Shown one piece after another: positions 9,183 through 56,077 of a stretch of 64,000 nucleotides of DNA. A model generated the notes under the pieces. It was given only the letters and a program-made list of their open reading frames with translations, had not been told where the DNA came from and did not search any database. Source of the stretch: an uncultured Gammaproteobacteria bacterium. Its GTDB lineage: Bacteria; Patescibacteriota; Patescibacteriia; Magasanikbacterales; GWA2-37-8. A program made the translations under genes and the position numbers. How positions within the stretch are numbered: position 1 is the first letter of the stretch; each line of letters opens with the position of its first letter. The stretch spans positions 9,671 through 73,670 of the forward strand of contig CAYXJO010000004.1 in the NCBI GenBank assembly GCA_964465205.1. Reading direction: 5' to 3'.

Positions 9183-9667
9183 ATTATATATATAATGTAT
9201 AAAGCCAGCGTGGGCTGGTCCGCCGGGTGGCGGATTGTTTATACTTTATCGTATCACAAAATCCGCTTTTTTTCAAATTTGGCATAAAATGAATTTTGGC
9301 TAATATTAGCTAAATACGGCGGGGATGTGGATAACTTTATGTTCACCCCCTTGACAAAAGTCCAAAATCGTGATATAGTATTCTGTTATGAAATAATCGA
9401 GCAGCTTTTGAGAGAGGAGCAGCCCGATTGTGTCACTGAATACCCTCTCGCCCAAAGAGGTTTTTTGTTAAGTAATGGTTTACCTATCAGTTCGTTACAA
9501 TCTAGTAGTGAAGACTCTGGCACAAAGTTGTATATATCATATATATGGTAATCAGCTTTGTGCTAGAGTGTAGAATGTCCAGTGCGCGGAATAATCCGTA
9601 GCGCTTGGCAAAGATGTCCCCAAGGCGTGCCGCACAGCGGCCCAATTGAACCAAAAAGGAGCCTACC

Positions 9668-10513
9668 ATGTCCGACAAGAACCAGACCCCCGAAAACGGA
9701 ACCGAAACCAACCAGACCCCCGAAATCCCCAAGGACAAGAAGGAGAATCCCATGCCCGAACCGAAGAAGACCCTGCCCCAGAAGTTCGACTACAACACCG
9801 GCCGCGAGCCCAAACATGCCGACGGCAGCAACCACGGCGCGCTGTGGTTCGTCGCCATCGCGGCGCTCGTGCTCGCCATCGGCGGCCTGGCGCTCGGAAG
9901 CGTGAACTACAGCGACATCGGCGGCTTGACGACCCTCATCAAGGGCCACAGCACCGACATCGCCAACTTGGTCAAAGAGAACGACGCCCGCAAAGCCGAG
10001 AACGACGACATGTATCTCAACCACGTCATGCCGGCCGAGGACGCCATCAGCGGCCTCAAGGTTCGCATGAACACCGCCGAAGGCACCATCAACGCCCACG
10101 GCAAGGCCATCACGGACGCCGAGAAGAACATCGTGTGGCTCACCGGCCAGAACAAGAAGGTCAACAAGGCGCTCTCGGAAAATGCCGAAACCGTCAAGAA
10201 TCAGGGCAAGACCATCGGTCAGTACGGCCAGAATTTCGAAAAGGTCAACGGCACGCTCGTCAAGCACGACGACCGCCTCGACTCGCTCGAAAAACGCCCC
10301 ATGACCAACAAGGCCAATCCCTTGTCCACCGGCGGCCCCACGGTCCTGTGGTGCGCGGGCAGCCTGAACAACCGGTTCGGCTGTCTGAACGACAAGCCCG
10401 TCGAGAAAGAGGTCGACGCGATCAAGCTCGCCTGCGGACCCGGCGGCTCGAAGAACGTCGCGAAGTTCGAAAACGGAACTTACGGCGATTTCGCCCCGGT
10501 CAACTGCAACTAG
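9668..10513 (+). CDS. Membrane-anchored coiled-coil protein (281 aa) with a single N-terminal TM helix and a 4-Cys C-terminal domain. First gene of the GC-rich island.
   Basis: AAGGAG RBS 8 nt upstream of the ATG. TM segment ALWFVAIAALVLAIGGLALGSV. Heptad-like region rich in K/E/N. Cys residues in the last 60 aa. GC is about 62%. Confidence 0.7.
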   Translation: MSDKNQTPENGTETNQTPEIPKDKKENPMPEPKKTLPQKFDYNTGREPKHADGSNHGALWFVAIAALVLAIGGLALGSVNYSDIGGLTTLIKGHSTDIANLVKENDARKAENDDMYLNHVMPAEDAISGLKVRMNTAEGTINAHGKAITDAEKNIVWLTGQNKKVNKALSENAETVKNQGKTIGQYGQNFEKVNGTLVKHDDRLDSLEKRPMTNKANPLSTGGPTVLWCAGSLNNRFGCLNDKPVEKEVDAIKLACGPGGSKNVAKFENGTYGDFAPVNCN

Positions 10514-10777
10514 GCCACCTCACTACTACACATGCTCTTTCGGCGTGGGACCCTCCGGGGTTCCACGCCACTCTTACATTGTTTATGATAGTCCCTTTTT
10601 AGGGACATATCATAGACAGCGTAGGAGTTAAGTCCTTTACATTTTAGAAGTCGTTAAGACCTTTCTGAGAGTTCCTGGTACAAAGAGAGGAACTATTTTA
10701 GTTTCTGTCTCTGTACCATGAACTTATTACCCACGATGTTCGTCACTTTCCTGCCGCAATGGCAAAGGAGGCTCGCA

Positions 10778-11401
10778 ATGAAACACCTATCCCTGTCTTT
10801 GGCGTTTATCGCCGCCCTGCTCATCTTCGGTTCCTTGGCCAACGCCTCGGAAGCCGACAACCCGCCCGTTGGTTGGCAGAACATTCCTCAGCTCCCGGAA
10901 AACAAGGAAGCCTGCAAGCTCGTCCCGGCCCTCACCCTCTTCGGAGGCGGCGGCTATGTGACCGGCGTCGAGAATCGCGGCAAACAACACGGCGAAGGCT
11001 TCGGTCTGGCCGTGGGATCGCTCGCGTTCAGCTTCCGCGCCACCCAGCACTTCATCGTCACTCCGCAACTTGACTTCGGTCTGGGCGGAGCGAAGAATGG
11101 TCGCTGGACCAGCTCGCTTGGCGTTCTGTTCGGAGGCCGTACGTATGGCGACGGGTTTCGTTTGTCCGCCGGGTTTTCCTGGGTGACTTACAACAACCTG
11201 GCCATCAAGGACGGCGGCTGGTGGTTGAACGGCGTGGGATTCCCCGTCAAGATGGACTTTAAACCGTGGGACAACAAGTACCCGGTTTTCTTCTCCATCA
11301 TGGCGACCCCGTTCGTCGGTATCAACCGCGGCAAGCACACCGGCGGCGGCCTGGAATTCCTGGGCGCTGGCATCGGCGGCGACTTGCCCTCGCCATTCTG
11401 A
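10778..11401 (+). CDS. Secreted OMP-like small beta-barrel protein (208 aa, C-terminal Phe)
   Basis: AGGAGG RBS and a signal peptide MKHLSLSLAFIAALLIFGSLANA with an A-N-A cleavage site. Gly/aromatic-rich amphipathic strands. The protein ends ...DLPSPF. The ORF-track start at 10718 is an upstream in-frame extension. Confidence 0.5.
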   Translation: MKHLSLSLAFIAALLIFGSLANASEADNPPVGWQNIPQLPENKEACKLVPALTLFGGGGYVTGVENRGKQHGEGFGLAVGSLAFSFRATQHFIVTPQLDFGLGGAKNGRWTSSLGVLFGGRTYGDGFRLSAGFSWVTYNNLAIKDGGWWLNGVGFPVKMDFKPWDNKYPVFFSIMATPFVGINRGKHTGGGLEFLGAGIGGDLPSPF

Positions 11402-11421
11402 TCTCAACGACTTCTCAACCC

Positions 11422-11460
11422 AGGTGGGCCGAGCTTCAGCTCGGTCCCACCCATTTTTAG
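11422..11460 (+). terminator. Intrinsic terminator after the OMP-like gene
   Basis: Hairpin GTGGGCCGAGC-TTCA-GCTCGGTCCCAC followed by CCATTTTT. Confidence 0.6.
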
Positions 11461-11681
11461 TGGTCACAATGATTTGTGAATACTAAAAAAGACATAAATT
11501 TATTTGTGTCTTGAGTTCATTAAAATTCGGATTAGAAAAACAAACACTTGGTACAAAGTTGATTGTCTCTTTGGTAATTAGCTTTGTGCCAAGTGATAAA
11601 TTCGGCGAGGTACAAAGCGTAGTGCTTTGTCCGCCGGTGAAAATTGAAAGCGTGTTCTCTACCACAAAGGAGTTTGAAGCC

Positions 11682-13145
11682 ATGAAACACACGATGCTGC
11701 TGGTTCTGATTGCCCTGATCGCGGCCCTGTTCACCATCGGTTGTTCGGCGGCGGGCGAAGACGCCCCCCAGAACATCATCGACGGCGACTCGACCGTGGA
11801 CGGCGACACCAACGAGGCCACCGAGGCCGACGGCGACTCCCAGGCCGAAGACGGGGATACCACGGAAGCGACCGAAGAGGAAAGCGAAAGCGAAACCTCG
11901 GACGGCGACTCGACCGTGGACGGCGACTCGAACGAAGGCGAACAGCCCGAGACCGAAGAAGCCGACACCGACACCACCCCCTACATCTGCCCCGGCACGA
12001 AGTTCGTGACCGGGCCGGCCGTGACCTGGCTGCAGAGCTGGGCCACCGGCGAGGAAAATCCCATCGACGCCGCCGGCACGTCTTGCACGTGTCCGGAAAG
12101 CGGCTGCGGACAGCAGCCCTGCGCGTGGTTGAACCCGCCGCGGAACTCGCGCATCACCACCTCGAACGGCACCTGCACCACCGAAGGCGACGACATCACC
12201 CTGTGCTACTACATGTCGCCGAGCCCGTCTCAGGAAACGTATGCGCCTTTCGTTACCCCCCAGGGTACGAAAGTCTGCACGCATGACGGACTTTACAGCG
12301 GCGCCCACGTCGAAGTCGACGGCGACACCGATACGGTGCTCCCCGACGGCGACTCGAACGAAGGCGAAGAAGAGGTGGACAACACCGAGACCGCCGACGG
12401 GGACATCGTTCCCGACGGGGACTCGGATACCACCGAGGCCGAACAAGAAGCCGACACGGAAGTCCCGGTGAACGAATGCCTGAGCAATGCGAATTGCGAC
12501 GACGGCCAAGCGTGCACCTATGACGAGTGCGTGTTTCTCACTTCGGGCAACCGCTGCGTTCGTTCGAACGAGGCCAACGGATCGCATTGCGACCCTGGCG
12601 TCAGCTTCGACGACGGATACTGCTACGAGGGTTCCTGCCACGGTTTCAACAACTGCGAGTCGAACCTCGACTGCCCCATGATTGACAACTGCAACTCGCA
12701 GCTCTGCATCATGGGCGAGTGTTACCCCAGCGAATCGGCGCCCCGTCCGGGCATTACCTGCGACGACGACAACCCCGATACCTACAGCGACGTTTGCAAC
12801 AGCAACGGCGTCTGCGAGGGAACTCCCAACGGGCAACAGACCGGTTTCGGGACTTGGGCCCTGCTGTTCGGCATGACCAATTGCCCCTCCTGGACGGTCG
12901 GCATCGACCATACCGGCAATGAGTCCGGCCCGAATGCTGAACACCAGGAAGACAGCGTCTGCTATTCCCGCACTGTGGGCGACAATCAAGCCCATTCGAT
13001 CTGGGGCCACATTGACCCCTGGGGTACGCAGCCTCCGGCCGGAATGAAGGTGCTCTGCACCACAAAGTACGGTACCCAATATTGGACCCCATGGGTTCAG
13101 GGTAACGGCGGCTGGTGGTTCGTCTGTTCCAACGACGGCCACTAA
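11682..13145 (+). CDS. Acidic Cys-rich secreted lipoprotein (487 aa), paralog of the next gene
   Basis: AGGAG RBS. Lipoprotein signal MKHTMLLVLIALIAALFTIGC (lipobox TIGC). The segment after the lipobox Cys is a DGD/TE/EA acidic low-complexity linker. The C-terminal half has many Cys in CxDG.xC patterns. The ORF-track start at 11511 is an in-frame upstream extension through the leader. Confidence 0.75.
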   Translation: MKHTMLLVLIALIAALFTIGCSAAGEDAPQNIIDGDSTVDGDTNEATEADGDSQAEDGDTTEATEEESESETSDGDSTVDGDSNEGEQPETEEADTDTTPYICPGTKFVTGPAVTWLQSWATGEENPIDAAGTSCTCPESGCGQQPCAWLNPPRNSRITTSNGTCTTEGDDITLCYYMSPSPSQETYAPFVTPQGTKVCTHDGLYSGAHVEVDGDTDTVLPDGDSNEGEEEVDNTETADGDIVPDGDSDTTEAEQEADTEVPVNECLSNANCDDGQACTYDECVFLTSGNRCVRSNEANGSHCDPGVSFDDGYCYEGSCHGFNNCESNLDCPMIDNCNSQLCIMGECYPSESAPRPGITCDDDNPDTYSDVCNSNGVCEGTPNGQQTGFGTWALLFGMTNCPSWTVGIDHTGNESGPNAEHQEDSVCYSRTVGDNQAHSIWGHIDPWGTQPPAGMKVLCTTKYGTQYWTPWVQGNGGWWFVCSNDGH

Positions 13146-13493
13146 ACCACCCCACCCGCACGGCGGGCTAATCCGATCACATAACCTAGGGCGGCAGGCT
13201 TCGGCTTGCCCCCTAGGCCTTTTACTTGAGATCATTATTCGTAGTGCTCTCAAGAAAAAGTTGTTTACCAACTATAGAAATTTCCTTACCTGCGGGCGCT
13301 TGTCCTTGTGCGTGAGGTTCGGGAGATTTTTGTGGTGGATAGGCAACTATCCAACATGATCCACTGTGTCTCTCTCCCAGTGGATTTTTGTTTCAACGGA
13401 GAGTTGCCCTTTGAAAATTGAGGATTAGAAAAACAACAACACACACGTCCACGTCTCGTTCCCATCTTTGCATGAAGAAAGGAGAAAATTCTC

Positions 13494-16400
13494 ATGCACC
13501 ACACGTCCCTTTCCCAAAAGTTACTTTTTGTGCTCTCGGTCTTGGCATTTCTCGTGATTGCTGGCTGTGGGAGCACCACCGTTACTACTGACGCCAATGA
13601 CGGCGACATGGAAGCGGTGGAATTGGACAATTCCGATGGGGACGAACCCATCAATGACGGCGACATCGAAAAAACGGAAGCCGAAGCCGACCAGGCCGAA
13701 GCGGAAGAAGATTCGACGGAAGCCGACACCGACACCGACGGCGACACGGAAGTTGAAAATTGCCAGAACTGGTACCCGGTTACCCCGCAGGTTGCTTTTT
13801 GCGATCTATTGGAGGAAGACCTCGGCCGCTTGGAGCGGATTTGCTACCAAGAGCAGCCGTCGCGACGCGAATGCTCGACCACCAAGGTCGGCGCGATCGG
13901 TTTCCAGTGCTCTATGGGAGCTACCTTCGTCATTTGCTATGACACGAATGGCGCGCCGGTTACCCCGGTCGTCTGTATCGTGAATGGCGAACGGACGCCG
14001 GCGATGGATAGCATCGCGGACACGGGTTTCCCGGGTTGCGACTATACCGTCATGCCGGTGGACGGCGACGAAGAGGAAGGCGAAAGCGAAGGCGAGACTG
14101 AAGAAGTCGAACCGGCCGACGGCGACACGGAAGTTTTGCCTGACGGCGACACCGAAGAGGTGCTCCCCGATGGCGATACGACCGAACAGCCCGAGGCCGA
14201 AGCTGAGGCGGACAACACCGAAGCCGTCGACGGGGACATTATTCCCGACGGCGACTCGGATATCACCGAGATCGACTCTGACCCCGAGTTGCCCCCGGTT
14301 TGCGAACCGGCGTGCGTGAGCGACGATCCTTGCAAACAGGCGGTGTGCGTCAATGGCACCTGCTTGTACGATTTGCTCACGGGCCTCGCCTGCGACGACG
14401 GCAACGCCTGCACGCGCGTGGATACGTGCTTGCTGGGCGAGTGCATCGGCGGCGACGAAGTCGTGTGTCAGGCCCTGGACCAGTGCCATTTGGTGGGGGA
14501 ATGTAACCCCGCCACCGGCACCTGCACCAGCCCGGCCGCAAACGACGGCACGCCCTGCAACGACGTGAGTCTCTGCACCACCCTCGACACCTGTTTGTCC
14601 GGCGTGTGCGGCGGCGCCGCCGTCGTGTGCAATGATAACAACGGTTGCACGAACGACTCGTGCGACCCGGAGCACGGCTGCGCGTTCGAACCAAATCTCA
14701 ACGCTTGCGACGATCACAACGCTTGCACCACGGGCGACATCTGTTCGAACGGCGGCTGCAGCGGCACGACCATCTCCTGCGACGATCTCAACCCCTGCAC
14801 CGACGACTCGTGCGACGCCGTTCTCGGCTGTCGCCATGTGCCCAACACCGCGTCCTGCGACGATGGCAATTGGTGCACGGTCGGCGACGTGTGCGGAGGC
14901 GGCACCTGCCACTCCGGCGCCACGCGCGACTGTTCAACCTTTGACTCGCAGTGCTCTAAAGGCATCTGCGACGAAGCCAACGATCAGTGCGTCAGCGATC
15001 CGCGTCCCCTCGAAGGGAAGTTGTGCGACGCCGACGCCAACGGCTGCACCAAAGACGATTACTGCCACGCGGGCGACTGCGTGAAGGGTACCGTCGTGGA
15101 CTGCACCGGGCAGAACGACCAGTGCAATACTGGCGTCTGCTATTCGACCGGCAACAATTCGTCCGTCTGCCTCAAGGACCCGACGCCGAAGCAGGGTAAC
15201 ATCTGCGACGACGGGGCCTATTGCACCATGGGGGAAACTTGCAACAACGGGGAGTGCATGAACGGCACCGCCCGCAATTGCACCGTTTTCACCGATCAAT
15301 GCAACGTGGGTACGTGCGACGAAACGCACGACACCTGCGTTCCTGTGGCCGTGGTAAACGGAACGGTCTGCAACGACGACAGCCTCTGCACCCAGAGCGA
15401 CACATGTCAATTTGGGATTTGCAAAGGCGATAACCCCGTCGTGTGTGGAGCACAGGACCAGTGCCATTTCGTGGGCACTTGTAACCCGTCCACCGGGACG
15501 TGTTCGAATCCGGTCAAACCGGACAACACGACCTGCGATGACGGTTCGCTGTGCACCAAGGAAGACAAGTGTACGGCCGGCACCTGCGGAGGCAGCACCG
15601 TTTTGTGCGACGACAACAATGTTTGCACGGACGACGTCTGTTTGCCTAAGGCCGGATGTCTGCACGCCAACAACTTCAACCCCTGCGACGACGGCAACGC
15701 CTGTACGCAGGGCGACATGTGCGGATACGGTCGATGCGAGGGCGAAGCGGTCGTCTGCGATGATGGCAACGTCTGCACGGACGACTATTGCGACATCGCC
15801 GCCGGCTGCAAAGCGGCTTTAAACGCCGCCCCTTGCGACGACAGCAACGCCTGCACCCAGGTTGACACCTGCTTGCTCGGTCAGTGCGTCGGGGGCAACC
15901 CTAAGACGTGCCCGGCCGAAGACGAATGCACCTATGCCGGCATCTGCGAACCGTCGGACGGGTTGTGTCGTGTTCAGTTCAAGCCTGAAGGTCTGCGTTG
16001 CAACGATAACGACAGTTGTACCGTCGGCGAGTACTGCGCTCTCGGTGTGTGCGGCGATGGCATTAGCCCCTGTGGCAGCCAGCACTGTCAGCCGATGAGT
16101 CCGAGCGGATACTACTGCTCGGAGTGTTGGAACGACGGCGATTGTCAGAGTGGATTCGCGTGCCTGCATCACGTTTGCGTCGATACCGCATGCGACGATG
16201 ACAATGCCTGTACGGTCGATACATTCAATCCGGTTATGGGTTGTCGCCACGATCAACGCACCTGCGACGACGGCAACGCCTGCACGTTCGACTTCTGCGA
16301 CACCATCGCCGGCTGCAAAACATTCCCGCTTTCGGGGATCGCGTGTAGCTCGGCCGATCCGAACGTGTGCAATGTGTATAAATGCAGCGCCGGGTCGTGC

Positions 16401-17069
16401 GATTACGATCACATGAAGAATTGCACGGACTACGACCGCACCACGGCCGATTCGTGCAACCCAACCACTGGCGAATGCATATACGACCCCATCCCCACCG
16501 ACGGCGACAGCGACGGCGATACCGAAACTGAAGCCGAGATTGATATAACCGACGGCGACCTCGACACCGAGAACGACACCGAAGAAACGCCGGCGTGCAT
16601 CCCGGCCAACTGCGACGACCAAAACCCCTATACGACGGATATTTGCGAGGCCGGCAACTGCCGCCACGTGGATAATCTCGCGCGGGCCTTTGTAATGCAG
16701 TTGCCGATTAACACCCAGATCACCAACGTGATCTTGTGGCCCACTGCGGGCACCGGCTATATCCATGACTACGTCGTCGCCACCGAATTACCAAAGGTTG
16801 ACACCAACGGCGACAGCGTGGTGGATTCGTACGAACTGGATATCTTGGCCGAGTTCTTGGCCGGACGTATCACGGAGCTGCCCGGTTCCGCCCAGGTGAT
16901 CTACCCGGGGTGGGACGGCGACGGCTTCCCGTGTTCGCCGCCTACGCCTACCGGCATCTGTCTGCTCAGCGACGGCACCACCGTTCAGCTGGTCTGGATG
17001 GCGGGCGGTCGTAACGCCCTTGGATGCCCATGGGACGGAGCGGTCGGATTCCCGATCGTTTGTCACTAA
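13494..17069 (+). CDS. Giant acidic lipoprotein (1191 aa) made of about 20 tandem 38-42-aa Cys-rich repeats (C[DN]DGNACT.[DG]D.C..G.C). These resemble the Myxococcus-type cysteine-rich repeat. A C-terminal dockerin/EF-hand-like loop reads DTNGDSVVDSYELD.
   Basis: RBS GAAAGGAG. Lipobox IAGC in MHHTSLSQKLLFVLSVLAFLVIAGC. Acidic DGDTE linkers. The linker DNTEAVDGDIIPDGDSDITE is nearly identical to DNTETADGDIVPDGDSDTTE in the upstream paralog. GC3 is very high. Confidence 0.8.
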   Translation: MHHTSLSQKLLFVLSVLAFLVIAGCGSTTVTTDANDGDMEAVELDNSDGDEPINDGDIEKTEAEADQAEAEEDSTEADTDTDGDTEVENCQNWYPVTPQVAFCDLLEEDLGRLERICYQEQPSRRECSTTKVGAIGFQCSMGATFVICYDTNGAPVTPVVCIVNGERTPAMDSIADTGFPGCDYTVMPVDGDEEEGESEGETEEVEPADGDTEVLPDGDTEEVLPDGDTTEQPEAEAEADNTEAVDGDIIPDGDSDITEIDSDPELPPVCEPACVSDDPCKQAVCVNGTCLYDLLTGLACDDGNACTRVDTCLLGECIGGDEVVCQALDQCHLVGECNPATGTCTSPAANDGTPCNDVSLCTTLDTCLSGVCGGAAVVCNDNNGCTNDSCDPEHGCAFEPNLNACDDHNACTTGDICSNGGCSGTTISCDDLNPCTDDSCDAVLGCRHVPNTASCDDGNWCTVGDVCGGGTCHSGATRDCSTFDSQCSKGICDEANDQCVSDPRPLEGKLCDADANGCTKDDYCHAGDCVKGTVVDCTGQNDQCNTGVCYSTGNNSSVCLKDPTPKQGNICDDGAYCTMGETCNNGECMNGTARNCTVFTDQCNVGTCDETHDTCVPVAVVNGTVCNDDSLCTQSDTCQFGICKGDNPVVCGAQDQCHFVGTCNPSTGTCSNPVKPDNTTCDDGSLCTKEDKCTAGTCGGSTVLCDDNNVCTDDVCLPKAGCLHANNFNPCDDGNACTQGDMCGYGRCEGEAVVCDDGNVCTDDYCDIAAGCKAALNAAPCDDSNACTQVDTCLLGQCVGGNPKTCPAEDECTYAGICEPSDGLCRVQFKPEGLRCNDNDSCTVGEYCALGVCGDGISPCGSQHCQPMSPSGYYCSECWNDGDCQSGFACLHHVCVDTACDDDNACTVDTFNPVMGCRHDQRTCDDGNACTFDFCDTIAGCKTFPLSGIACSSADPNVCNVYKCSAGSCDYDHMKNCTDYDRTTADSCNPTTGECIYDPIPTDGDSDGDTETEAEIDITDGDLDTENDTEETPACIPANCDDQNPYTTDICEAGNCRHVDNLARAFVMQLPINTQITNVILWPTAGTGYIHDYVVATELPKVDTNGDSVVDSYELDILAEFLAGRITELPGSAQVIYPGWDGDGFPCSPPTPTGICLLSDGTTVQLVWMAGGRNALGCPWDGAVGFPIVCH

Positions 17070-17078: not shown

Positions 17079-17140
17079 CCCCCTAGGGGGCACAACCGGC
17101 TCGGGGGGGGGAGAAATCTCCCCCCGGCCAAATATTTTTC
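17079..17140 (+). terminator. GC-rich palindromes and terminator at the end of the island
   Basis: Perfect palindrome CCCCCTAGGGGG, followed by hairpin GGGGGGGGAGAAATCTCCCCCC and a T-run. Confidence 0.5.
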
Positions 17141-17267
17141 TATCAATCAAATGCTTGAATACAAAAATTATTCAAACATCCGATTGGCAGATTAATTTCC
17201 GCCAAAACAAAAATTCCACCTTTTTCTCTCTCTAGGTGGATTTTTGTTTTCAAAAACAAATAAAAAA

Positions 17268-17382
17268 ATAGCCGTATAGATATTGGTTTTCGCCAGCGGC
17301 CATCGCACCCCGCCGTGCGGGGCGTAGCGCCGACAATCCGGCGCAAGTCTGGCCGCCAGAAAACTAATATCTATACGGCTAT
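17268..17382. repeat. GC-rich palindromic structured element, copy 1 (115 bp)
   Basis: An about 80-nt GC-rich core contains internal hairpins CCCCGC-CGT-GCGGGG and GCGCCG-ACAATC-CGGCGC. It is flanked by a perfect 17-bp AT-rich inverted repeat ATAGCCGTATAGATATT / AATATCTATACGGCTAT. Confidence 0.6.
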
Positions 17383-17389
17383 TATAATT

Positions 17390-18787
17390 TTAGGATGTTG
17401 TTTTTGAACTCCAAAAACCCCACATCGTCCAGATCCACCATATCACCGGCGTATGATGCAACATATTATCTGACACACTCAGTGCCAAATACACAAGAAT
17501 CGAAGAGATGAACACAATATTTGTCCAACTACTATTCCACCCGATTTTTAATTGTGTCAAAAATAGCGTCAAGTAAATAGTGACAAATAACAGTAATCCG
17601 ATAATGCCAGTCTCGAACCCTACTTTAAGATAATCATTGTGCGCTTCTGAGGTATTATCCCAAATATTTTTAACCGGTTTATTATCATCCCACACTTTGG
17701 CAAAAGCGCCATACCCATAGCCAATTATAGGGTGCTCGAAATATAGTGGTAATACTTTGTTGGCTACATCGGCGCGCCACTGAATGGAGTCGGCTTCTTG
17801 ATTACGAGTGGTCAAACGCGCGATTAGTGAATTGGACTGCAAATTAATATTGAATTCGTCTGTCAAAAAATTATTTACCGGATAAAACAAAATATAGAAT
17901 ACTCCCACCGACAGAGCCAGCTCTATTAGTAGTTTTGGCCGATAAATAATCCCAAGGATTATTAAAAATATCAGTAATCCTAGCCAGGCAATACGAGTAT
18001 AAGTAAAGGCCACTATGAGTGCCAATAATATCAGCGCTACAATTAATATGTTCTGTTTTTGAACAAAAATTTTGTTCACCCATGAATCGCTGATTTGGAA
18101 AAGTGGGCGATTGTGCAAGTGTACAAGATATCTATCGGCTATGGCCATAAAAATTAGCAAGGCAAAGGTGGCCATGATGTTGGGGTGAGCGAATGTACCA
18201 TAGATTCTGTTGGGCGTACCGTCGATAGTCATACCGGAATGGGTAATAAACTGGAAAATAGCCACGGTGATAGGTACTATGGCCGAAGAGAATAATGCCC
18301 AGTGTAGCCAGTGACCGTATTTATCTTTGTTTTTTTGATACAAAACGAAAGAAATACCAAATAGTGCAAATAAGTCGAGCGCCTTTACTGTTTCTATAAT
18401 AGTAGTGCTTTTATCGTGGCTCCAAACAAAACTAATCAAACACCAGGCGCAAAAACATATCCATAATTTTTTGAGTGGGATTTTATGCCAGTATTCCGAG
18501 TTTTTGAGAAAGAAGTAAGCAGACCACACCAAAAGAATGCCGGCCAGAGCCGCGTTGATGTTGATATGAATATTTTCATAAGAAAAAATCATCACATCTC
18601 GCCATTGATCGATCGCTGGTCGCGCCACGAGTAGTATCAAGACAGTGTATTCTTTGAAGGTGGCGTGCAAAAGCAAGAACAATAATGCCAAAAAGGCCAG
18701 TATATTAATATTGGTGATTGGGTTGAAGATGATAGTGAGGGTGAATAGTACGGCGAGCCAAGCTATCCCCGGCATTTTCATTTGCAT
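17390..18787 (-). CDS. O-antigen ligase/polymerase family (Wzy_C-like) polytopic membrane protein
   Basis: More than 10 predicted TM helices. Motifs FAHPNIMATF and AHNDYLKVGFETGIIGLLLF are typical of WaaL/O-antigen ligase periplasmic loops. Confidence 0.65.
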   Translation of the reverse strand: MQMKMPGIAWLAVLFTLTIIFNPITNINILAFLALLFLLLHATFKEYTVLILLVARPAIDQWRDVMIFSYENIHININAALAGILLVWSAYFFLKNSEYWHKIPLKKLWICFCAWCLISFVWSHDKSTTIIETVKALDLFALFGISFVLYQKNKDKYGHWLHWALFSSAIVPITVAIFQFITHSGMTIDGTPNRIYGTFAHPNIMATFALLIFMAIADRYLVHLHNRPLFQISDSWVNKIFVQKQNILIVALILLALIVAFTYTRIAWLGLLIFLIILGIIYRPKLLIELALSVGVFYILFYPVNNFLTDEFNINLQSNSLIARLTTRNQEADSIQWRADVANKVLPLYFEHPIIGYGYGAFAKVWDDNKPVKNIWDNTSEAHNDYLKVGFETGIIGLLLFVTIYLTLFLTQLKIGWNSSWTNIVFISSILVYLALSVSDNMLHHTPVIWWIWTMWGFWSSKTTS

Positions 18788-18843
18788 ATAAGTTGATTAT
18801 ATCATCTTTTTAGGCTATAATACAAGGTGTAAGTTTTGATTAA

Positions 18844-18954
18844 GTGGTATGGATATTTAATTTTCTGGCGGCCAGACTTGCACCGGATCGTTGGCGCTAC
18901 GTCCCGCGCGGCGGGATGCGATGGCCGCTGGCGAAAATCAAATATCCATACCAC
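18844..18954. repeat. GC-rich palindromic structured element, copy 2 (111 bp), in inverted orientation to copy 1
   Basis: The core is the reverse complement of the copy-1 core with 6 substitutions, of which at least two pairs are compensatory within stems. Its flanks form a different perfect 15-bp inverted repeat GTGGTATGGATATTT / AAATATCCATACCAC. Confidence 0.6.
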
Positions 18955-18966
18955 CAAATTATATTT

Positions 18967-19953
18967 ATGTCCACCAGATTACCAATTGATTGTGTGATAG
19001 CCGTTACATATCGATGCAATGCACGTTGCACTATGTGTGATATTTGGCAGATAAAAGATTTTCCGGAATTGAAACCAGAAATATTAAAAAAACTTCCCGC
19101 TTCTTTGCGTGATATCAACATCTCCGGCGGTGAGCCGTTTTTGCGTGCCGATTTAATAGAAATAATTCGCGTTTTGAAAGATGTCTGTCCGGTGGCTCGC
19201 ATGGTGATTTCCTCCAATGGTTTTGCCACCGAACTTATTATGGAAAAGATGCGTGAGATTATAAAAATTAATCCCGATATTGGCGTGGCCATCTCTATTG
19301 ATGGTATGGGGGAGATGCACGATGAAATGCGTGGTATTCCAGGTGGTTTCGATAAAGCCATGGCCACCATTAAGGCACTCAAAGAATTAGGTATGACCAA
19401 TTTGCGTTTGGCATTTACCATGGGCGATCGCAATGCCAAACATCTGTCAGCTGTGTATGATCTGTCGCGTTCTTTGGGAATACAGTTTACCCATAGCTTT
19501 GCCCAGAGCTCCGAATTTTATTTTGGCGGTAAACAGAACACCAACACTTTGCGTCGTGATTTGATTTGGGATCAATATGGTTATCTTATAAAACGCGAAC
19601 TCAAAACTTGGCGATTGAAAAATTGGCTGCGCGCTTATTATGCTTATGCCATGCGCGATTTTATTCTAAGTCATGATCAGCCCCTGTCCAACGCGCCGGG
19701 TCGTGATTTTATGTTTATCGACCCATCTGGTGCGGTCTATCCTTCGGTGGTCCACAATATCGTTATGGGAAATTTGCATAAAATAGATGATTTTATGGGT
19801 TGGTGGCTTTCGCCAGATGTCGAGACAAAACGCGCTCAGATAGACGCGCTTAAGTTGCCGATTTGGATGATGTGCACGGCGCGTACAGCGATGTTGCGCC
19901 ACCCGTTTCGAGTAATGTTTTGGGTATTTAAAAATAAATTTTTTGCCAAATAA
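18967..19953 (+). CDS. Radical SAM enzyme of unknown specificity
   Basis: CxxxCxxC motif in CVIAVTYRCNARCTMCD, and a glycine-rich SAM motif ISGGEPF. The start was moved to the internal ATG because the ORF-track N-terminus (from 18844) translates the GC-rich repeat element. Confidence 0.75.
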   Translation: MSTRLPIDCVIAVTYRCNARCTMCDIWQIKDFPELKPEILKKLPASLRDINISGGEPFLRADLIEIIRVLKDVCPVARMVISSNGFATELIMEKMREIIKINPDIGVAISIDGMGEMHDEMRGIPGGFDKAMATIKALKELGMTNLRLAFTMGDRNAKHLSAVYDLSRSLGIQFTHSFAQSSEFYFGGKQNTNTLRRDLIWDQYGYLIKRELKTWRLKNWLRAYYAYAMRDFILSHDQPLSNAPGRDFMFIDPSGAVYPSVVHNIVMGNLHKIDDFMGWWLSPDVETKRAQIDALKLPIWMMCTARTAMLRHPFRVMFWVFKNKFFAK

Positions 19954-30661: not shown

Positions 30662-31600
30662 ATGGACAGTTTGTATAAACAATTGAAAGATTTTGGTCAA
30701 ACAAAATCGAATATTCCTTTGGCCAAGTACACCACTTTTAAAATTGGTGGTACCGCGCGTTATCTGGTGGAAATAGACGACACGAACAAGTTGGTTGATG
30801 CATTGAATTTTTTATCCGGTGAAGGTATTCCGTACTTTGTTTTGGGTGGCGGATCCAATTTGCTTTTTTCCGACAATGAATATGACGGTGTGGTGGTAAA
30901 AGTGGCTACTCGCAAAAATAGTATTGTTGGAAATAATATTAGTATCGACGCTGGATTGCCGTTGGCGCTACTGGTGAATATGTGTAGCCAAAACGGTTTT
31001 ACCGGCATGGAATGGGCAGCGGGAATACCCGGTACGATTGGTGGCGCGGTGCGTGGTAACGCCGGTGCGTATGGTGGTTCGACCGCGGACAGTCTAGTTT
31101 CTGTCACGGTTTGGCGCGATCAAGATGTGACACAATTGTCTCCTGTTGAATGTAGTTTTGGTTATCGGGAAAGTATATTCAAACATAATTCCGACGTTGT
31201 GCTTTCGGCTGAATTTACGTTTGTTCCCGGTGACAAAGCGGCTATTTTGCAAAAAAGTCAGGGGTATATATTAGAACGCAGCGCCAAGTTTCCGCGCTTT
31301 TTTTCCGCCGGTAGTTTTTTCAAAAATTTTGATTTAAAAAATTATCACGGCGACCAGTCACTGCTACCGGAAAAGTTTTTGCAAGTAGGCAAGGTGGGTG
31401 CCGCGTGGTTTATTGAACAATCCGGCATGAAAGGGCGTGCGGTAGGCGACGCCAAAGTATCCGACGAGCACGCCAATTTCATTGTCAATTGTAATAATGC
31501 GACTCAAACTGATGTACTAAATTTAGTTGAGCAAGTCAAAGAAGCGGTGTATAATAAGTTTGGCGTTGAACTAGAACCAGAAGTGCAAATTGTAAAATAA
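30662..31600 (+). CDS. murB: UDP-N-acetylenolpyruvoylglucosamine reductase
   Basis: FAD-binding N-terminus YTTFKIGGTARYLVE...VLGGGSNLLFSD and the MurB C-terminal domain. Confidence 0.85.
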   Translation: MDSLYKQLKDFGQTKSNIPLAKYTTFKIGGTARYLVEIDDTNKLVDALNFLSGEGIPYFVLGGGSNLLFSDNEYDGVVVKVATRKNSIVGNNISIDAGLPLALLVNMCSQNGFTGMEWAAGIPGTIGGAVRGNAGAYGGSTADSLVSVTVWRDQDVTQLSPVECSFGYRESIFKHNSDVVLSAEFTFVPGDKAAILQKSQGYILERSAKFPRFFSAGSFFKNFDLKNYHGDQSLLPEKFLQVGKVGAAWFIEQSGMKGRAVGDAKVSDEHANFIVNCNNATQTDVLNLVEQVKEAVYNKFGVELEPEVQIVK

Positions 31601-31746
31601 TATCTTTAGTACATTGTCAGTTCGTGTTTCGGTATTTTTGTTCGCTCCTTGTGCTACGCAGTGTCGCTATACAAAAATCCGAACCACTCGCTTATCGGTA
31701 TTATGTACTCAAGATATTATTTAACAATTTATTATAACCGTATATT

Positions 31747-32100
31747 ATGCAAATAAATATCACTGGCAAGGGGATAGAGCTTACCGAAGCTATTAAGGAT
31801 TATGTAAATAAGAAATTTGAGGGTTTGGATAAGTTTTATGATCGAATTATTCGTGCCAATGTTAGCGTGGGCATGGAAACCAAACATCATCTCAAAGGCC
31901 AGGTATTTGTCTGTGAGTGTAAATTGGAGATTCCGGGCAACGACGTGTTTGCTAGTAAAAATGAAAAAGTGCTTTATAAAGCAATTGATAAAGTGCGTGA
32001 TTATTTAGAAGCAGAACTCAAAAAACACAAAGCCAAAACGAGTCGTAGCGAACATCGCGACAAGGCAACCCGCCGTGCCACCAAAGAATATCAAATGTAA
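31747..32100 (+). CDS. hpf: Ribosome hibernation promoting factor / RaiA (short form)
   Basis: MQINITGKGIELTEAIKDYV...KFEGLDKF typical S30AE-family start. 117 aa. Confidence 0.85.
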   Translation: MQINITGKGIELTEAIKDYVNKKFEGLDKFYDRIIRANVSVGMETKHHLKGQVFVCECKLEIPGNDVFASKNEKVLYKAIDKVRDYLEAELKKHKAKTSRSEHRDKATRRATKEYQM

Positions 32101-51831: not shown

Positions 51832-52560
51832 ATGATTAGCGTAGTTATTCCTGTTTATAATCACGCCCACACTCTAAAAAAGTGTATCTTGGGTTTGGTG
51901 AATCAAACTTATCGACTGTTAGAAATAATTATTGTAAACGATGGTAGTACGGATGATTTTTTGCGCACGGCATCCACGGTCGAAGGTATTTTGAAAACTC
52001 AAAACATTGAATATAAAATTATCAATCAAAAAAATGCCGGCGCACCGGCTGCGCGCAATCGCGGTTGGCGTGAATCAAAAGGGGATTATGTGATATTTTA
52101 TGATGCCGATATTATTGCCCAGCCAATAATGTTACAAAAAATGCATGATGCGCTCACACACAATCCAACAGTTTCATATAGTTATAGTCAGTTTCGTTTT
52201 GGTTGGAAAAAAATAAAAGCCCAAGAATTTGATGCTGATGATTTGCGCCAAAATAATTACGTAAATACAGTTTCGTTAATCCGGCGGAGCGCGCTAGTAG
52301 AAGTATTTGGTAGTAATAATCCGTGGGATGAAAACTTGAAACGTTTTCAAGATTGGGATTTGTTTTTGACGCTTTTAGAAAATAACAAAACCGGCGTTTT
52401 TGTGCCGGAAGTATTGTATGGCGTGCGGGTGAGTGGACGAATAGGTATTAGTAGCTGGTTGCCTAGCTTCATATATCGTTTGCCGTGGAAGACGACCCAA
52501 GTAAAAAAATACGAAGCAGCACGAGAGATTATTGCACGCAAACACGGATTGAAATTTTAA
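51832..52560 (+). CDS. Glycosyltransferase family 2
   Basis: ISVVIPVYNHAHTL, DGSTDD and YDADI (DxD). Confidence 0.8.
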   Translation: MISVVIPVYNHAHTLKKCILGLVNQTYRLLEIIIVNDGSTDDFLRTASTVEGILKTQNIEYKIINQKNAGAPAARNRGWRESKGDYVIFYDADIIAQPIMLQKMHDALTHNPTVSYSYSQFRFGWKKIKAQEFDADDLRQNNYVNTVSLIRRSALVEVFGSNNPWDENLKRFQDWDLFLTLLENNKTGVFVPEVLYGVRVSGRIGISSWLPSFIYRLPWKTTQVKKYEAAREIIARKHGLKF

Positions 52561-54401
52561 ACCTGATCCGCGATTTTTATAAAGAAGGCTCTATCTTTTG
52601 GGTGATTGAGAAGTTTGACAACTTCTTCTTTTTTTACCCAACGCGCTTCGGGATTTTCGGGATCCAGAGGACAAAGCTGTCCGGTGCCGCGTGCTAGGAA
52701 AAAGCTGATTTGTTTGTGGATATAGAGATTGTATGGTGGAATATATGTTAGTCGTTCGTAATCCCCAAGAAATTTGGTGATTTGCAAGTTTTCGGGTGCG
52801 ATGCCTGTTTCTTCGTATATCTCTCTTTTGGCCGCCACGCTTACATCTTCATTCGGCTCCACATTGCCTTTGGGAAATGTCCAGGTGTGCGATTTGAGAT
52901 TTGACACCATTGCAATCTCGTTTTGTTTGTTCACTACTATACCACCGGTGCTATGTGAAAAATACCAGCCAATTGGCGAGATGATTATTATTAGCCACAC
53001 CATACCGATGACGTGGGTTAGGGCCGGCGAAGTGATATTAATAATTAAAAAACAAAATAAAGTTGCCAAAAAAATTCTGCGCGCGTCTCCGACTTTGTTT
53101 TTAAATATATTGAATATTAAATATCCGATAAAATACAACCAAGCTACCAACCCTAGTAGTCCCAACTCCGCGGCGATTTCAAAATATCCCCAATCAAAAT
53201 GTGGAGTGGTAATTGTTTTTTTCAAAATCGGACTATAGATAGTCACAGTATCTCCCAAACCGGTGCCAAAAAACGGGGTATATTTAATTTTTTCCCAGAT
53301 CGCCGGTAAAATAAGCAATCGCGACAAGCCACTATCATCCAGTTGAGGTGCGGAAATGGCTTGAGTACGTAATCCGAGTAGCTCCCATCCCGCACTGTGC
53401 CCGCGACTGGCAAATAGATGTGTGCTAGAAAAAATAACTACAAAAGTGACAATAACTCCGGCACCATACATCAGCAGACGTTGCCAGTTATCACGACGCA
53501 CCAGTAATAATAAGCCACCTGCAATACCCAACATATAGGCGCGAGTAAGACTAAGCGACAAGACCGCTAAAAGTAAAATTGCGAGAACGACAAATATATT
53601 TTTATGCGGCGCGGCTGGTATTTTTCTGCTATCGGGCCCACGATCTGTTTGTGGGGCGGTTTGGCGACCGATAAAATATACCAACAACGGCGACAGTAAT
53701 AAGTGCTCGTTTAATACTACGCGATAAAAGTTTTGAGTTAAATCGGTAATTTTACCACCGGCCACATCGCGAAACCAGTGATAAAAATTATCTTGCAAAG
53801 TAAATATTCCGGAAGAAAAACCACTAAAAGTAAAAAACGCAAAAGTTACATTCCCAATAATACCGGCTACAAATAAATTGAATAGGGTAGAGCGAAATGG
53901 TTTGTTGGTCCAAAAATGGAGTAAGGGGAAGGTGTATAATAAAAATACGTATGGTAAACCGTCGGCAAATATCAGTTTTATATCGTGTCCGTTCAGGTAG
54001 CCGTTAATCGCCCCAAACTCAGCAATCATTAGTAATAGTAAAATCGGCGCGGCCATTTGGCGTATGAGAAAATAAAGTTCTTGTTGAATAAACCTGTCAC
54101 GAATAATTTGAAAAGTAAAAATTATTAGGGAACCAAATAATAACCAAGTACGCAGTGCTATTCCACCTAGTGCTAGATATCCACCGGCACCACCCAGGAT
54201 AATCTCCCCGGCGATGATGGCCCAGCCGCGCCAATCTTGCTTAAATATCAAATAGATCGTACCGACGAAAATCAGCGTGGTGATAATTTGATTCACAATA
54301 CTGGCAACTTGTAGTGGTGTGTCTGGGCCAAAAAAATACGCGAACACGCGTAAAACAAAATATCCTATAATAAAACCAGTCAGTTGTTTTTTGTTTAGCA
54401 T
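52557..54401 (-). CDS. Fusion protein: O-antigen-ligase-like (Wzy_C) polytopic membrane domain plus a C-terminal NUDIX hydrolase domain
   Basis: About 12 TM helices with PHFDWGYFEIAAELGLLG. The C-terminus has the Nudix box KGNVEPNEDVSVAAKREIYEETGI. Confidence 0.65.
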   Translation of the reverse strand: MLNKKQLTGFIIGYFVLRVFAYFFGPDTPLQVASIVNQIITTLIFVGTIYLIFKQDWRGWAIIAGEIILGGAGGYLALGGIALRTWLLFGSLIIFTFQIIRDRFIQQELYFLIRQMAAPILLLLMIAEFGAINGYLNGHDIKLIFADGLPYVFLLYTFPLLHFWTNKPFRSTLFNLFVAGIIGNVTFAFFTFSGFSSGIFTLQDNFYHWFRDVAGGKITDLTQNFYRVVLNEHLLLSPLLVYFIGRQTAPQTDRGPDSRKIPAAPHKNIFVVLAILLLAVLSLSLTRAYMLGIAGGLLLLVRRDNWQRLLMYGAGVIVTFVVIFSSTHLFASRGHSAGWELLGLRTQAISAPQLDDSGLSRLLILPAIWEKIKYTPFFGTGLGDTVTIYSPILKKTITTPHFDWGYFEIAAELGLLGLVAWLYFIGYLIFNIFKNKVGDARRIFLATLFCFLIINITSPALTHVIGMVWLIIIISPIGWYFSHSTGGIVVNKQNEIAMVSNLKSHTWTFPKGNVEPNEDVSVAAKREIYEETGIAPENLQITKFLGDYERLTYIPPYNLYIHKQISFFLARGTGQLCPLDPENPEARWVKKEEVVKLLNHPKDRAFFIKIADQV

Positions 54402-55300
54402 AATAGCGTGCGGTAGCCATTCAGAAATATGGTGGCACCCATGGCTTTTTTACCTTCTAGCTGCAAATTCAATACCTCGATTGCTCCATTTTTGCAGCCG
54501 AAAAATATTTTTTCATTTTCGATTTCTATTTTTCCCGGGGCCACATTACGATCGACCGGTTGGATGGTGATGAATTTTATTCTTTTGCCGCTTAGTTCTG
54601 TCCAAATTCCCGGCCAAGGAGTAAGTGCTCGATACAAATTGTATATCTGAGTGACGGTTTGTTCGGTGAAGTTTATTTTGCCATCATTGCGAGATAGTGG
54701 TTTGCAGTAAGTGGCTTCGTTTTCGTTTTGAGATACGGGTTGAATATTCCCAACGACCCACTTTGGGGCCGTGTCTAGAAGGGTAAAAATAGCCTTTTCC
54801 AGCAGTTTTTGGGCCAAAGTGGTGTGATTATCGGTATCTTCTATTGTGACCTTTTCTTGGTTCAAAATAGGACCATGGTCCATTTTTTCGTCCATAAGCA
54901 TAATCGTCACCCCGGTTTCTGTGTCGCCATTTATAATTGCCGTCTGAATAGGGGCCGCTCCGCGATATTTCGGCAATAGGGAAGTGTGTACATTGATAGA
55001 TTGGAATTTGGCCCCATCTAAAATATTTTTGGGTATAATAAACCCGTATTGACACACAATGTTCAAATCAACGGCGTAAGGTTGAAAATCAAAATTTTTT
55101 AGTGTGGTAGGTTGTAGAATATTCAAATTCAATTTCTGTGCCAAAATTTTTACCGGCGGAGACTGAAGTTCCTGGTGTCGACCGACGGGTTTGTCGGGCG
55201 CGGAAAAAACATTTTTTATTTCAAAAAGGCCGCTATTATGTAGAGCCTGTAGAATGCCGGCGGCAAAATCGTGTGTACCAAAGAAATTAATTGAGATCAT
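54395..55300 (-). CDS. fmt: Methionyl-tRNA formyltransferase
   Basis: MISINFFGTHDFAAGILQAL formyl-transferase N-domain and the Fmt C-terminal domain. Adjacent to def. Confidence 0.85.
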   Translation of the reverse strand: MISINFFGTHDFAAGILQALHNSGLFEIKNVFSAPDKPVGRHQELQSPPVKILAQKLNLNILQPTTLKNFDFQPYAVDLNIVCQYGFIIPKNILDGAKFQSINVHTSLLPKYRGAAPIQTAIINGDTETGVTIMLMDEKMDHGPILNQEKVTIEDTDNHTTLAQKLLEKAIFTLLDTAPKWVVGNIQPVSQNENEATYCKPLSRNDGKINFTEQTVTQIYNLYRALTPWPGIWTELSGKRIKFITIQPVDRNVAPGKIEIENEKIFFGCKNGAIEVLNLQLEGKKAMGATIFLNGYRTLLC

Positions 55301-55302
55301 AA

Positions 55303-55788
55303 TTATGAGTTTTTGTCTTCACGGCGAATATTCTTGGCTTTTTCAATAAATAATATGCCATTAATATGGTCTACTTCATGTTGTACTATGCGCGCAAAAT
55401 AATTTTCGGCATTAAACGTAATCGTTTGCCCCAATTCGTTCATGGCTTTGACCGCGATTTTTTTGTATCGCTTTACGTCGCCCCATACTCCGGGCACCGA
55501 CAAGCAACCTTCGGTATCGGAAGTTTTTATGATGCTTTTTTTCTCCCACACCGGATTGATCAATACCAAATCTTGATCTGTGCCAGCGTATTGTTTTGCA
55601 ATCACACACAGGGCAAGGGACTCGGACACTTGCGGGGCGGCGATACCTACGCCATCTTTGGCGTACATAGTTTCGGTCATGTCGGCGATTAATTTTTTGA
55701 TTTTATTGGATTGCAAATCAGCCACGGTTATTTCCGCGCCTTTTTTATGCAGAATTGGATTGGGTTCGGTAGTCACCGATAGTATCAT
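55303..55788 (-). CDS. def: Peptide deformylase
   Basis: GVGIAAPQV, EGCLSVPG and HEVDHING motifs. Confidence 0.85.
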   Translation of the reverse strand: MILSVTTEPNPILHKKGAEITVADLQSNKIKKLIADMTETMYAKDGVGIAAPQVSESLALCVIAKQYAGTDQDLVLINPVWEKKSIIKTSDTEGCLSVPGVWGDVKRYKKIAVKAMNELGQTITFNAENYFARIVQHEVDHINGILFIEKAKNIRREDKNS

Positions 55789-55798
55789 AATCCTGTAA

Positions 55799-56059
55799 TT
55801 ATTTTTCTTGTACTTTATTTTTGCTTGTCCGCCACAGGAATAATTTGGCCGGAGAAGACGCTTGGCTTTCGTTAATTTCGGAAAAAATTCTACGCGCCTC
55901 GGCCGTGCCGATACGTTTGATTATTCCCAAATACATGCCAAATTTTTTGCGTTCCCCAAAAGAGGACGATATCACATCGGCCCAGTAGTGGGCTTCAGAG
56001 TGAATATTCTTATTAGCAGTTTTTTGCTCTTTTGTCAAGATGTTTTTAATATCATCCAT
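55799..56059 (-). CDS. Small hypothetical protein (86 aa)
   Basis: ORF with host codon usage, co-oriented in the def-fmt block. Confidence 0.4.
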   Translation of the reverse strand: MDDIKNILTKEQKTANKNIHSEAHYWADVISSSFGERKKFGMYLGIIKRIGTAEARRIFSEINESQASSPAKLFLWRTSKNKVQEK

Positions 56060-56077
56060 AATCAGTGAAGTGCTAAT

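Follow-up and report, generated by a model that had tools for sequence, protein, structure and literature searches.

The described systems closest to the elements reported here are the repeats that resemble miniature inverted-repeat transposable elements (MITEs) and the repetitive extragenic palindromes (REPs) with their hairpin-forming doublets, the REPINs, which are mobilized by RAYT (TnpA-REP) transposases. MITE-like repeats, such as Correia/NEMIS in Neisseria, ERIC/IRU in enterobacteria, and bcr1 in the Bacillus cereus group, are non-coding sequences of 100 to 160 nucleotides (nt) that are bounded by inverted repeats, fold into one long stem-loop or cruciform-like RNA, reside in intergenic DNA near gene ends, are co-transcribed, and have a distribution that is not conserved among related genomes. 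REPs and REPINs are extragenic palindromes of high GC content that occupy untranslated regions, in many cases between convergent genes; they show no target duplication, and compensatory changes are common in the long hairpins that they form (PMC3116915). Here, we describe two palindromes, E1 and E2, that share many of these traits and lie in opposite orientation on either side of a waaL-like gene in a Ca. Magasanikbacteria-like Patescibacteria genome; the window, that is, the whole stretch of DNA analyzed, comprises 64,000 nt (positions 9,671 to 73,670 of contig CAYXJO010000004.1, assembly GCA_964465205.1).

We think it somewhat probable that E1 and E2 go back to a single small palindromic repeat, non-coding and able to be copied into new sites, of which they are old copies that have since diverged. 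This interpretation draws on the divergence between the copies, their absence from syntenic relatives, their position in untranslated gaps, the preservation of their fold, and their lack of coding capacity. On the best reading, the repeat family is new and apparently low-copy, and belongs to the lineage of this genome. The repeat behaves like MITEs, REPINs, ERIC, and bcr1, and we call it similar to, and not a member of, the MITE or REPIN families.

The E1 and E2 palindromes

E1 occupies positions 17267 to 17383 of the window (on the plus strand, taken as the strand with G-U pairs; the element proper runs from about 17270 to 17380), and E2, which is inverted relative to E1, occupies positions 18839 to 18959 on the minus strand; a covariance model scores the two at 138 and 133.8 bits, respectively. 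A repeat finder and direct reading of the sequence agree with the first-pass annotation, made from the letters of the sequence alone, that two GC-rich palindromic elements of ~113 nt surround waaL in opposite orientation. Its distances of 8 and 57 nt between elements and gene also stand (from 17382 to 17390, and from 18844, where it placed the start of E2, to the waaL ATG at 18785 to 18787); by our boundaries, E1 ends at 17383, and the waaL open reading frame (ORF), including its stop codon, starts at 17390. The elements are 111 to 121 nt long and non-coding: no ORF is confined to either of them, although several reading frames stay open across the GC-rich core, one of which runs on into the neighboring radical SAM ORF.

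The inner 85 nt of the two elements (17283 to 17367 in E1 and 18857 to 18941 in E2) form inverted repeats that are 91% complementary, and the longest exact run common to E1 and E2 is 21 nt. When 17-mers from either end of the core are sought with up to three mismatches, the 64-kb window yields two matches, E1 and E2 themselves, against a shuffled expectation of 0.04 to 0.11 per window; this, together with fold z scores of −6 to −10.7, excludes chance, and the feature is real and statistically solid. The three-way-junction core (17292 to 17358 on the plus strand in E1 and 18866 to 18932 on the minus strand in E2) has a GC content of 76% in E1 and 73% in E2, against 45% for the window as a whole, and the two 67-nt cores differ at exactly six positions, the number given before for a core of ~80 nt. 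Other parts of the earlier description need correction. The core had been assigned a GC content of ~65%, matching that of an adjacent island, but the neighboring gene has a GC content of only 60% and shares no sequence similarity with the core. Likewise, the AT-rich clamps that close the two elements were said to differ completely and to measure 17 and 15 base pairs (bp); they are in fact homologous stems of 22 to 25 bp in which 17 of 22 stem pairs are identical.

Each element forms one long hairpin, in which an AT-rich closing stem of 22 to 25 bp (P1) leads through an asymmetric internal loop (GCCA/CA) to a second stem of 7 bp (P2, GCGGCCA/UGGCCGC), which opens into a three-way junction with the hairpins P3 (CCCCGC...GCGGGG) and P4 (GCGCCG...CGGCGC). 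On the plus strand of E1, the 5′ arm of P1 (17267 to 17291) pairs with the 3′ arm (17359 to 17383) over 25 nt at 96% complementarity, P2 joins 17296 to 17302 with 17350 to 17356, P3 spans 17305 to 17325, and P4, with a GTAG directly before it, spans 17327 to 17344; the junction strands read GCCA, UC, A, AAGUC, and CA. For E2, the repeat finder reports a closing inverted repeat of 27 nt that is 89% complementary. The predicted folding energies are −75.6 kcal/mol for the plus strand of E1 (z = −10.7) and −64.4 kcal/mol for the minus strand of E2 (z = −8.5), and the opposite strands fold nearly as well (−73.7 kcal/mol for E1 and −59.5 kcal/mol for E2). With DNA parameters, both strands of each element are equal in stability, and RNAalifold, run unguided, recovers the same structure.

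The substitutions between E1 and E2 that had been singled out as compensatory (CCCCGC/GCGGGG to TCCCGC/GCGGGA, and a G-C pair to G-U) are confirmed, and the significance of the compensatory pattern is borne out by simulation. Pair counts refer to a two-sequence alignment of E1 against E2, in which 43 pairs are predicted. Five of these have changed on both sides with pairing kept: four in P1 (C-G to U-A, C-G to G-C, A-U to G-C, and G-C to A-U) and one in P3 (C-G to U-A, the first of the changes just named). In addition, an extra T-A pair is inserted on both arms of P1, and two changes yield G-U pairs, one of them in the GCGCCG stem, where it replaces G-C. The sole broken pair is the loop-closing pair of P4, the other two differences between the copies fall in hairpin loops, and no change affects P2 or the junction strands. 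If the 3′ partners are shifted by one to three columns, pairing drops to 35 to 52%, with no or one double change, compared with 98.8% and five in the true register. When the 15 observed substitutions are placed at random with a transition bias, at least five compensated doubles arise in ~1e-5 of trials, and outcomes with no more than one broken pair have a frequency of ~0.0015, from which we conclude that some process has kept the fold. Fold-keeping changes of this kind are, however, documented both for REPINs, where they are common across the hairpin (PMC3116915), and for bcr1 of Bacillus (PMC3184786), such that covariation alone is no indicator of a non-coding RNA (ncRNA) gene.

The process in question could also be arm-to-arm templated repair, that is, quasipalindrome correction during replication, by which the palindromy would have been made and kept with no selection, function, or present mobility. 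All four double changes in P1, as well as the indel, restore perfect Watson-Crick pairing, and P1 has diverged faster than the core (~24% versus 9% of positions), a rate that paired independent mutations would have difficulty attaining under purifying selection. Template switching at quasipalindromes is known to cause mutations. The same G-T mismatches nevertheless remain uncorrected in both copies (alignment columns 20-100 and 40-60), and templated repair explains the upkeep of the arms but not the origin of two copies. As an account of the whole feature, we consider it distinctly unlikely; it complements the copied-repeat interpretation more than it competes with it, and templated correction may contribute to the perfect stems.

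The locus in related genomes

Relatives of the waaL-like protein share 81%, 74%, 62%, and ~50% identity with it and, where named, are assigned to Patescibacteria/Parcubacteria and Ca. Magasanikbacteria. We compared 11 syntenic loci (L013 to L018 and L020 to L024), whose coding DNA is ~72% identical to that of the window by BLASTN. In all 11, the radical SAM and waaL genes are divergent, and a conserved terminator region and then a GC-rich gene come next, as in the window; in none of the 11 are the sequences of E1 or E2 present. The spacer between the radical SAM and waaL genes measures 62 to 69 nt in 10 of the 11 loci, against 179 nt in the window; in the remaining locus (L024), it measures 251 nt by gene calls but is short like the others by alignment. 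BLASTN homology ends at 18827 and restarts at 18979, and the window spacer minus E2 amounts to 28 nt, compared with 32 nt in the relatives in the spacer alignment. To judge from these alignments, E2 is a clean insertion of 110 to 120 nt into an otherwise conserved spacer.

At the E1 site, homology ends at 17398 and restarts at 17250, and the relatives carry a different palindromic repeat family at this position. This family, which has TTGTCATTCCGAC...GTCGAAATGACAA at its ends and GGAATCTCTG / CAGAGATTTC repeats inside, is represented there by one copy or by several (1790 to 2110 in L013, 11227 to 11392 in L024, 9954 to 10119 in L021, and 6930 to 7030 in L014). The gap downstream of waaL appears to be a hotspot for small repeats.

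If E1 and E2 are copies of one repeat, the second copy would have arisen by short-range insertion into the nearest free intergenic gap, and the bracketing of a single gene would be a by-product of that short range, making a waaL-directed function unnecessary. The fold may be kept because the hairpin, as single-stranded DNA or as RNA, is the form that is copied; alternatively, the hairpin may be tolerated or even useful, as a 3′ stabilizer or terminator for waaL and as a 5′ structure for the radical SAM mRNA. Support for the copied-repeat interpretation comes from the tendency of intergenic gaps to gather such elements, as seen in a further hairpin at 31587 to 31730 of the window and in the other palindromic repeat at the E1 site of the relatives.

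A number of results weigh on the other side, the first being that only two copies are known. A covariance model searched with its filters off finds no third copy in the 64 kb and recovers only generic hairpins from 75 kb of the relatives. A two-anchor pattern (CAGCGGCCATCG...AGTCTGGCCGC) finds no true copy in the GTDB representative genomes, IMG/VR, or the JGI metagenomes, its four matches (L001 to L004) all being chance occurrences in GC-rich DNA. Within IMG/VR, a degenerate pattern covering only the junction gives eight matches, with a complementary P2 in none of the eight, and single 18-mers give seven chance matches and zero matches. Sensitive blastn against plasmid and phage collections finds nothing, nor do six-frame peptides of both cores find anything at E ≤ 10 among 5.8 billion proteins. 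By Pfam, there is no transposase, integrase, or recombinase among the 36 window ORFs scanned (those of at least 150 amino acids [aa] that were judged real).

The insertion sites and the distribution of changes count against copying as well. No target-site duplication is readable at either copy: the flanks read ..AAAAAAAT / ATTATAAT.. at E1 and ..ATAATTT / TTAATCA.. at E2, with no consistent duplication, and in AT-rich flanks of old copies a 2-bp duplication could be masked. There is also no truly empty E1 site, all relatives carrying the other repeat there. Finally, conservation runs in the reverse of the classical MITE or REPIN direction: the center (the junction strands and P2) shows no change, whereas divergence is greatest at the termini, where 6 of the outer 10 bp are identical. 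Such a pattern is unexpected if a transposase binds the ends. A derivation of the closing stem from the target site was considered and dropped, the 11-nt match of the E1 arm to sequence past the waaL stop codon in L013 (E = 3.8) being judged an AT-rich chance occurrence.

The relatives also bear on the gene that the palindromes enclose. The DNA identity of waaL to its counterparts is 72.4%, compared with 71.5 to 78% for the neighboring genes, and its orientation is the same in all relatives. Since waaL keeps its place and direction in genomes without the elements and has diverged to the same degree as its neighbors, it is, by this synteny, ancestral at the locus and not cargo of the repeats. 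E1 and E2 could otherwise be taken for the structured ends of one mobile unit (a composite or foldback transposon, or a gene cassette) that brought waaL with it, given that inverted terminal copies exactly bracket one ORF and that pairs of MITEs can mobilize the genes between them, as in integron mobilization units (PMC3184786). Such an origin is, in our view, extremely improbable: the relatives have waaL in the same place and orientation, with conserved promoter and terminator but without the elements, its divergence equals that of its neighbors, and its GC content, at 40%, is host-like. A composite transposon carrying waaL is contradicted outright by the synteny and the equal divergence.

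Surface polysaccharide loci of other bacteria, for example, Bacteroides fragilis, are well known to undergo phase variation through invertible promoter segments. The geometry of such a segment exists here, with inverted repeats (85 nt at 91% identity) flanking one gene and both promoter-like sites, which lie inside 17384 to 18838. The first-pass annotation raised the possibility that the inverted arrangement mediates inversion or excision of the enclosed gene. The pair would then be a substrate for DNA inversion, or for hairpin-mediated excision, of the 1.45-kb segment, which would rewire expression of the surface-glycan genes. Since both divergent promoters lie inside the segment, inversion would strip the radical SAM operon of its own promoter and place it downstream of waaL. 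However, the orientation of waaL with respect to both flanks is the same in all relatives without the repeats, leaving no sign of a past inversion, and Pfam detects no recombinase or integrase among the scanned ORFs. The longest exact run shared by the repeats (21 nt) is about as long as efficient RecA recombination in Escherichia coli requires, or shorter; the repeats have drifted to 91% identity, whereas active recombination sites usually stay identical; and known invertase sites are 10 to 30 bp long and are not 113-nt hairpins. Inversion or excision of the enclosed gene is thus unsupported, and we regard it as very improbable. An inversion left behind by replicative transposition is likewise rejected, the orientation of waaL being that of the relatives.

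Predicted transcripts and neighboring sequence

The enclosed gene (17390 to 18787, minus strand) encodes a Wzy_C/O-antigen-ligase-like membrane protein of 465 aa (PF04932, 4.6e-22), and the divergent radical SAM gene (18967 to 19953, plus strand; PF04055) is the one whose predicted 5′ untranslated region (UTR) holds E2. Between the waaL ATG and E2 lie overlapping promoter-like sites on both strands (18793 to 18825), whose function we infer: on the minus strand, TTGTAT-18-TATAAT (18825 to 18796; TGnTATAAT), with its −10 box 6 to 8 nt before the waaL ATG, and on the plus strand, TTGATT-17-TATAAT (18793 to 18821), which would drive the radical SAM operon. Conservation in the relatives extends over the 51 nt that separate the waaL ATG from E2. 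Promoter-like matches in this AT-rich region number 11, about twice the shuffled expectation of 6.1.

The position of the −10 box suggests that the waaL mRNA is nearly leaderless, both in the window (18785 to 18801) and in the relatives. In the relatives (340 to 365 in L013), the waaL −10 box likewise lies just 6 to 8 nt before the ATG, and in L014, only ~16 nt separate the radical SAM −10 box from its ATG. Going by the promoter-like sites and by conservation, E2 would lie in the 5′ UTR of an operon of radical SAM, glycosyltransferase, and GHL15 genes, ending 8 to 12 nt before the ATG, and E1 would lie in the 3′ UTR of waaL, between the stop codon and a T-rich run (AUUUUUUUAUUUGUUUUUG; 17251 to 17266 on the minus, waaL-sense strand) that can be read in the sequence directly after E1. 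The E1 hairpin plus the U-run would make a terminator-like arrangement with the look of a 3′ stabilizer; a terminator scan gave no score to E1 and the T-run, the loop being longer than the limit of the tool. Past AUUUUUUUAUUUGUUUUUG on the waaL-sense strand follows a conserved CCACC/GGTGG bidirectional terminator.

E1 and E2 may instead be cis-acting structured RNA modules, or a small ncRNA, in the waaL and radical SAM glycan transcripts, in which the three-way junction is functional, for example, as a protein-binding or processing site, and the closing stem need only pair. We consider this somewhat unlikely. The pattern of change is the one expected for a functional core, in that P1 and P3 vary with compensation around junction strands and a P2 that do not vary, and it is this combination of a conserved center with ends that are free to vary that keeps a functional module alive; the significance of two invariant 21-nt blocks at ~10% divergence is nevertheless weak (~0.01, as an estimate). 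Both copies adjoin the same cell-surface glycan genes, yet the relatives run the same gene cluster without either element. The high GC content of the core within a much less GC-rich window would also suit a structured RNA.

The evidence from the strands is mixed. Four positions are G-U on the strand carrying E1(+) and E2(−): columns 20-100 and 40-60 are so in each copy, and columns 4-116 and 64-77 in E2 alone. On the other strand, only one position would be G-U. With RNA parameters, the strand richer in G-U pairs is the more stable by 1.9 kcal/mol in E1 and 4.9 kcal/mol in E2. It is, however, antisense to the most plausible transcripts, the waaL 3′ UTR and the radical SAM 5′ UTR: E1 and E2 are oriented alike relative to the host transcripts, in the orientation without the G-U pairs. 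A promoter-like TTGGTA-16-TATAAT does point into E2(−), but this AT-rich region holds only about twice as many promoter-like matches as shuffled sequence.

Searches for known RNA families return nothing at the elements. Rfam gives no match to E1 or E2 at the gathering threshold, nor any at E ≤ 10 on 17200 to 19020, and ARAGORN and searches for tRNA and transfer-messenger RNA find none at the elements (the only hit is a tRNA-Glu at 50539). Hammerhead, twister, and armless-tRNA readings of the core were dropped, the core motifs being absent and Rfam and ARAGORN negative. With no Rfam match and no further copy or homologue in the collections searched, the structured ncRNA family that was among the options put forward earlier is unsupported. 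A broader variant, which we rate as rather unlikely, is that the three-way junction is a previously undescribed functional module of Patescibacteria, acting as RNA or as single-stranded DNA recognized by a protein of the host or of the element, and placed around waaL to control, insulate, or rearrange expression of the glycan cluster. Were this so, the free closing stem and invariant junction would reflect function and not mere selfish copying.

Beyond E1 lies a GC-rich gene (13494 to 17069, 60% GC), which has GC-rich counterparts in relatives that lack the elements. The proposed link of the elements to a GC-rich island is refuted by this presence in relatives without E1 and E2 and by the absence of any similarity, and derivation of the core from the adjacent gene is rejected, since the only match is a 13-nt chance occurrence and the gene is ancestral. 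The block to which the gene belongs (9500 to 17069) has a GC content of 54 to 64%, against ~42% elsewhere, and its encoded proteins are mostly without Pfam matches; it includes a 1,191-aa protein with Dictyostelium-type Cys-rich repeats as well as GACGGCGAC-type coding repeats. Because the relatives have GC-rich DNA at the same position, the block is, as far as synteny tells, a set of ancestral genes with unusual composition and not an island of recent origin.

Several non-coding stretches close to or within this block are of interest in their own right. That from 17112 to 17250 is 87 to 90% identical to the relatives, despite coding identity of ~72%, and holds a long hairpin (AATGCTTGAATA...TATTCAAGCATT) and the CCACC/GGTGG hairpin, with T-runs on both strands. 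The stretch, whose fold is more stable on the minus strand (−49.2 versus −37.5 kcal/mol), matches no Rfam family above noise and is a candidate conserved small RNA or bidirectional terminator. A second stretch (13216 to 13419), upstream of the gene for the 1,191-aa repeat protein, is 88% identical to 13873 to 14079 of L024. Two AT-rich hairpins (9515 to 9568 and 11542 to 11598), both intergenic within the GC-rich block at 9.6 to 17 kb, have the arm motif GG(C/T)ACAAAGTTG in common and surfaced as stem-only matches of the E1/E2 covariance model.

Elsewhere in the window, a third long-hairpin intergenic element (31587 to 31730) occupies the gap that separates the murB stop codon (31600) from an hpf/raiA-like ORF (ATG at 31768). 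Its arms of 28 nt are 93% complementary and 88 nt apart, its core is AT-richer than those of E1 and E2, it folds at −44 to −45 kcal/mol (z = −6.6 to −7.8), and Rfam returns only sub-threshold hairpin noise for it. The element is unrelated to E1 and E2; homology with them was rejected on the grounds that the common AATATCT motif occurs in opposite sense relative to the stem. A second Wzy_C/O-antigen-ligase-like gene (52557 to 54401), fused to a C-terminal NUDIX domain, has no hairpin element at its flanks. A Logan contig of 1,221 nt (L019, SRR11845627) is 100% identical to positions 54916 to 56136 of the window, which places the same strain in a second data set.

Placement among described repeats

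Among the three options first advanced for these elements, a mobile palindrome similar to REPs or MITEs fits best, in light of its absence from relatives and the clean insertion of E2. The likeness to MITEs extends to a length below 400 bp (111 to 121 nt), the lack of coding sequence, terminal inverted repeats of 25 and 27 nt, and presence or absence at orthologous sites, with the elements missing from all 11 of the syntenic loci. Unlike MITE-like repeats, E1 and E2 have no readable target-site duplication, their termini are the least conserved part, two copies are known, and no parent insertion sequence or transposase is seen; further, their center is a conserved GC-rich three-way junction and not variable filler.

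The comparison with REPINs turns on architecture. A REPIN is a symmetric doublet of inverted palindromic REP units with conserved ends and a variable middle, and REPs are GTAG/CGTC-tagged palindromes of 20 to 40 nt. The GTAG directly before P4 (GTAG-CGCCG...CGGCG) recalls the GTAG-tagged REPs (PMC3733652). E1 and E2 nonetheless depart from the REPIN architecture, because neither is a symmetric doublet: their arms do not consist of palindromic units, P3 bears no relation to P4, the middle is conserved, and the ends are variable. No gene for a RAYT, a Y1 HUH transposase, occurs among the scanned window ORFs, and there are two copies in 64 kb, as opposed to the tens to hundreds that are typical of REPINs.

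Two further systems are alike in shape only. The inverted terminal repeats of parvoviruses, including adeno-associated virus, and the branched-tip attC sites of integrons combine a long stem with two small hairpins or come as an inverted pair, but E1 and E2 enclose a chromosomal gene that is ancestral, as opposed to a replicon or a cassette. attC sites occur in direct arrays beside an integrase, whereas E1 and E2 are inverted, form no array, and have no integrase among the scanned ORFs; the R″/R′ core sites of attC (RYYYAAC/GTTRRRY) are absent, the base of the stem reading GGTTTTC/GAAAAC.

Literature searches returned no description of small mobile palindromic repeats in the genomes of Patescibacteria, or candidate phyla radiation, which are tiny and gene-dense. 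The locus supplies a dated before-and-after comparison, in which the same gene cluster exists with and without the insertions, and the elements have landed in the inferred 5′ and 3′ UTRs of cell-surface glycan genes, with their fold kept by compensated changes. It thereby offers a usable natural test of whether, in unculturable organisms, such hairpins have an effect on mRNA stability, on termination, or on translation. As it stands, the repeat adds modestly to the known intergenic repeats of bacteria; should the element turn out not to be mere selfish DNA, the three-way junction that it keeps unchanged would define a structured motif of a new kind.

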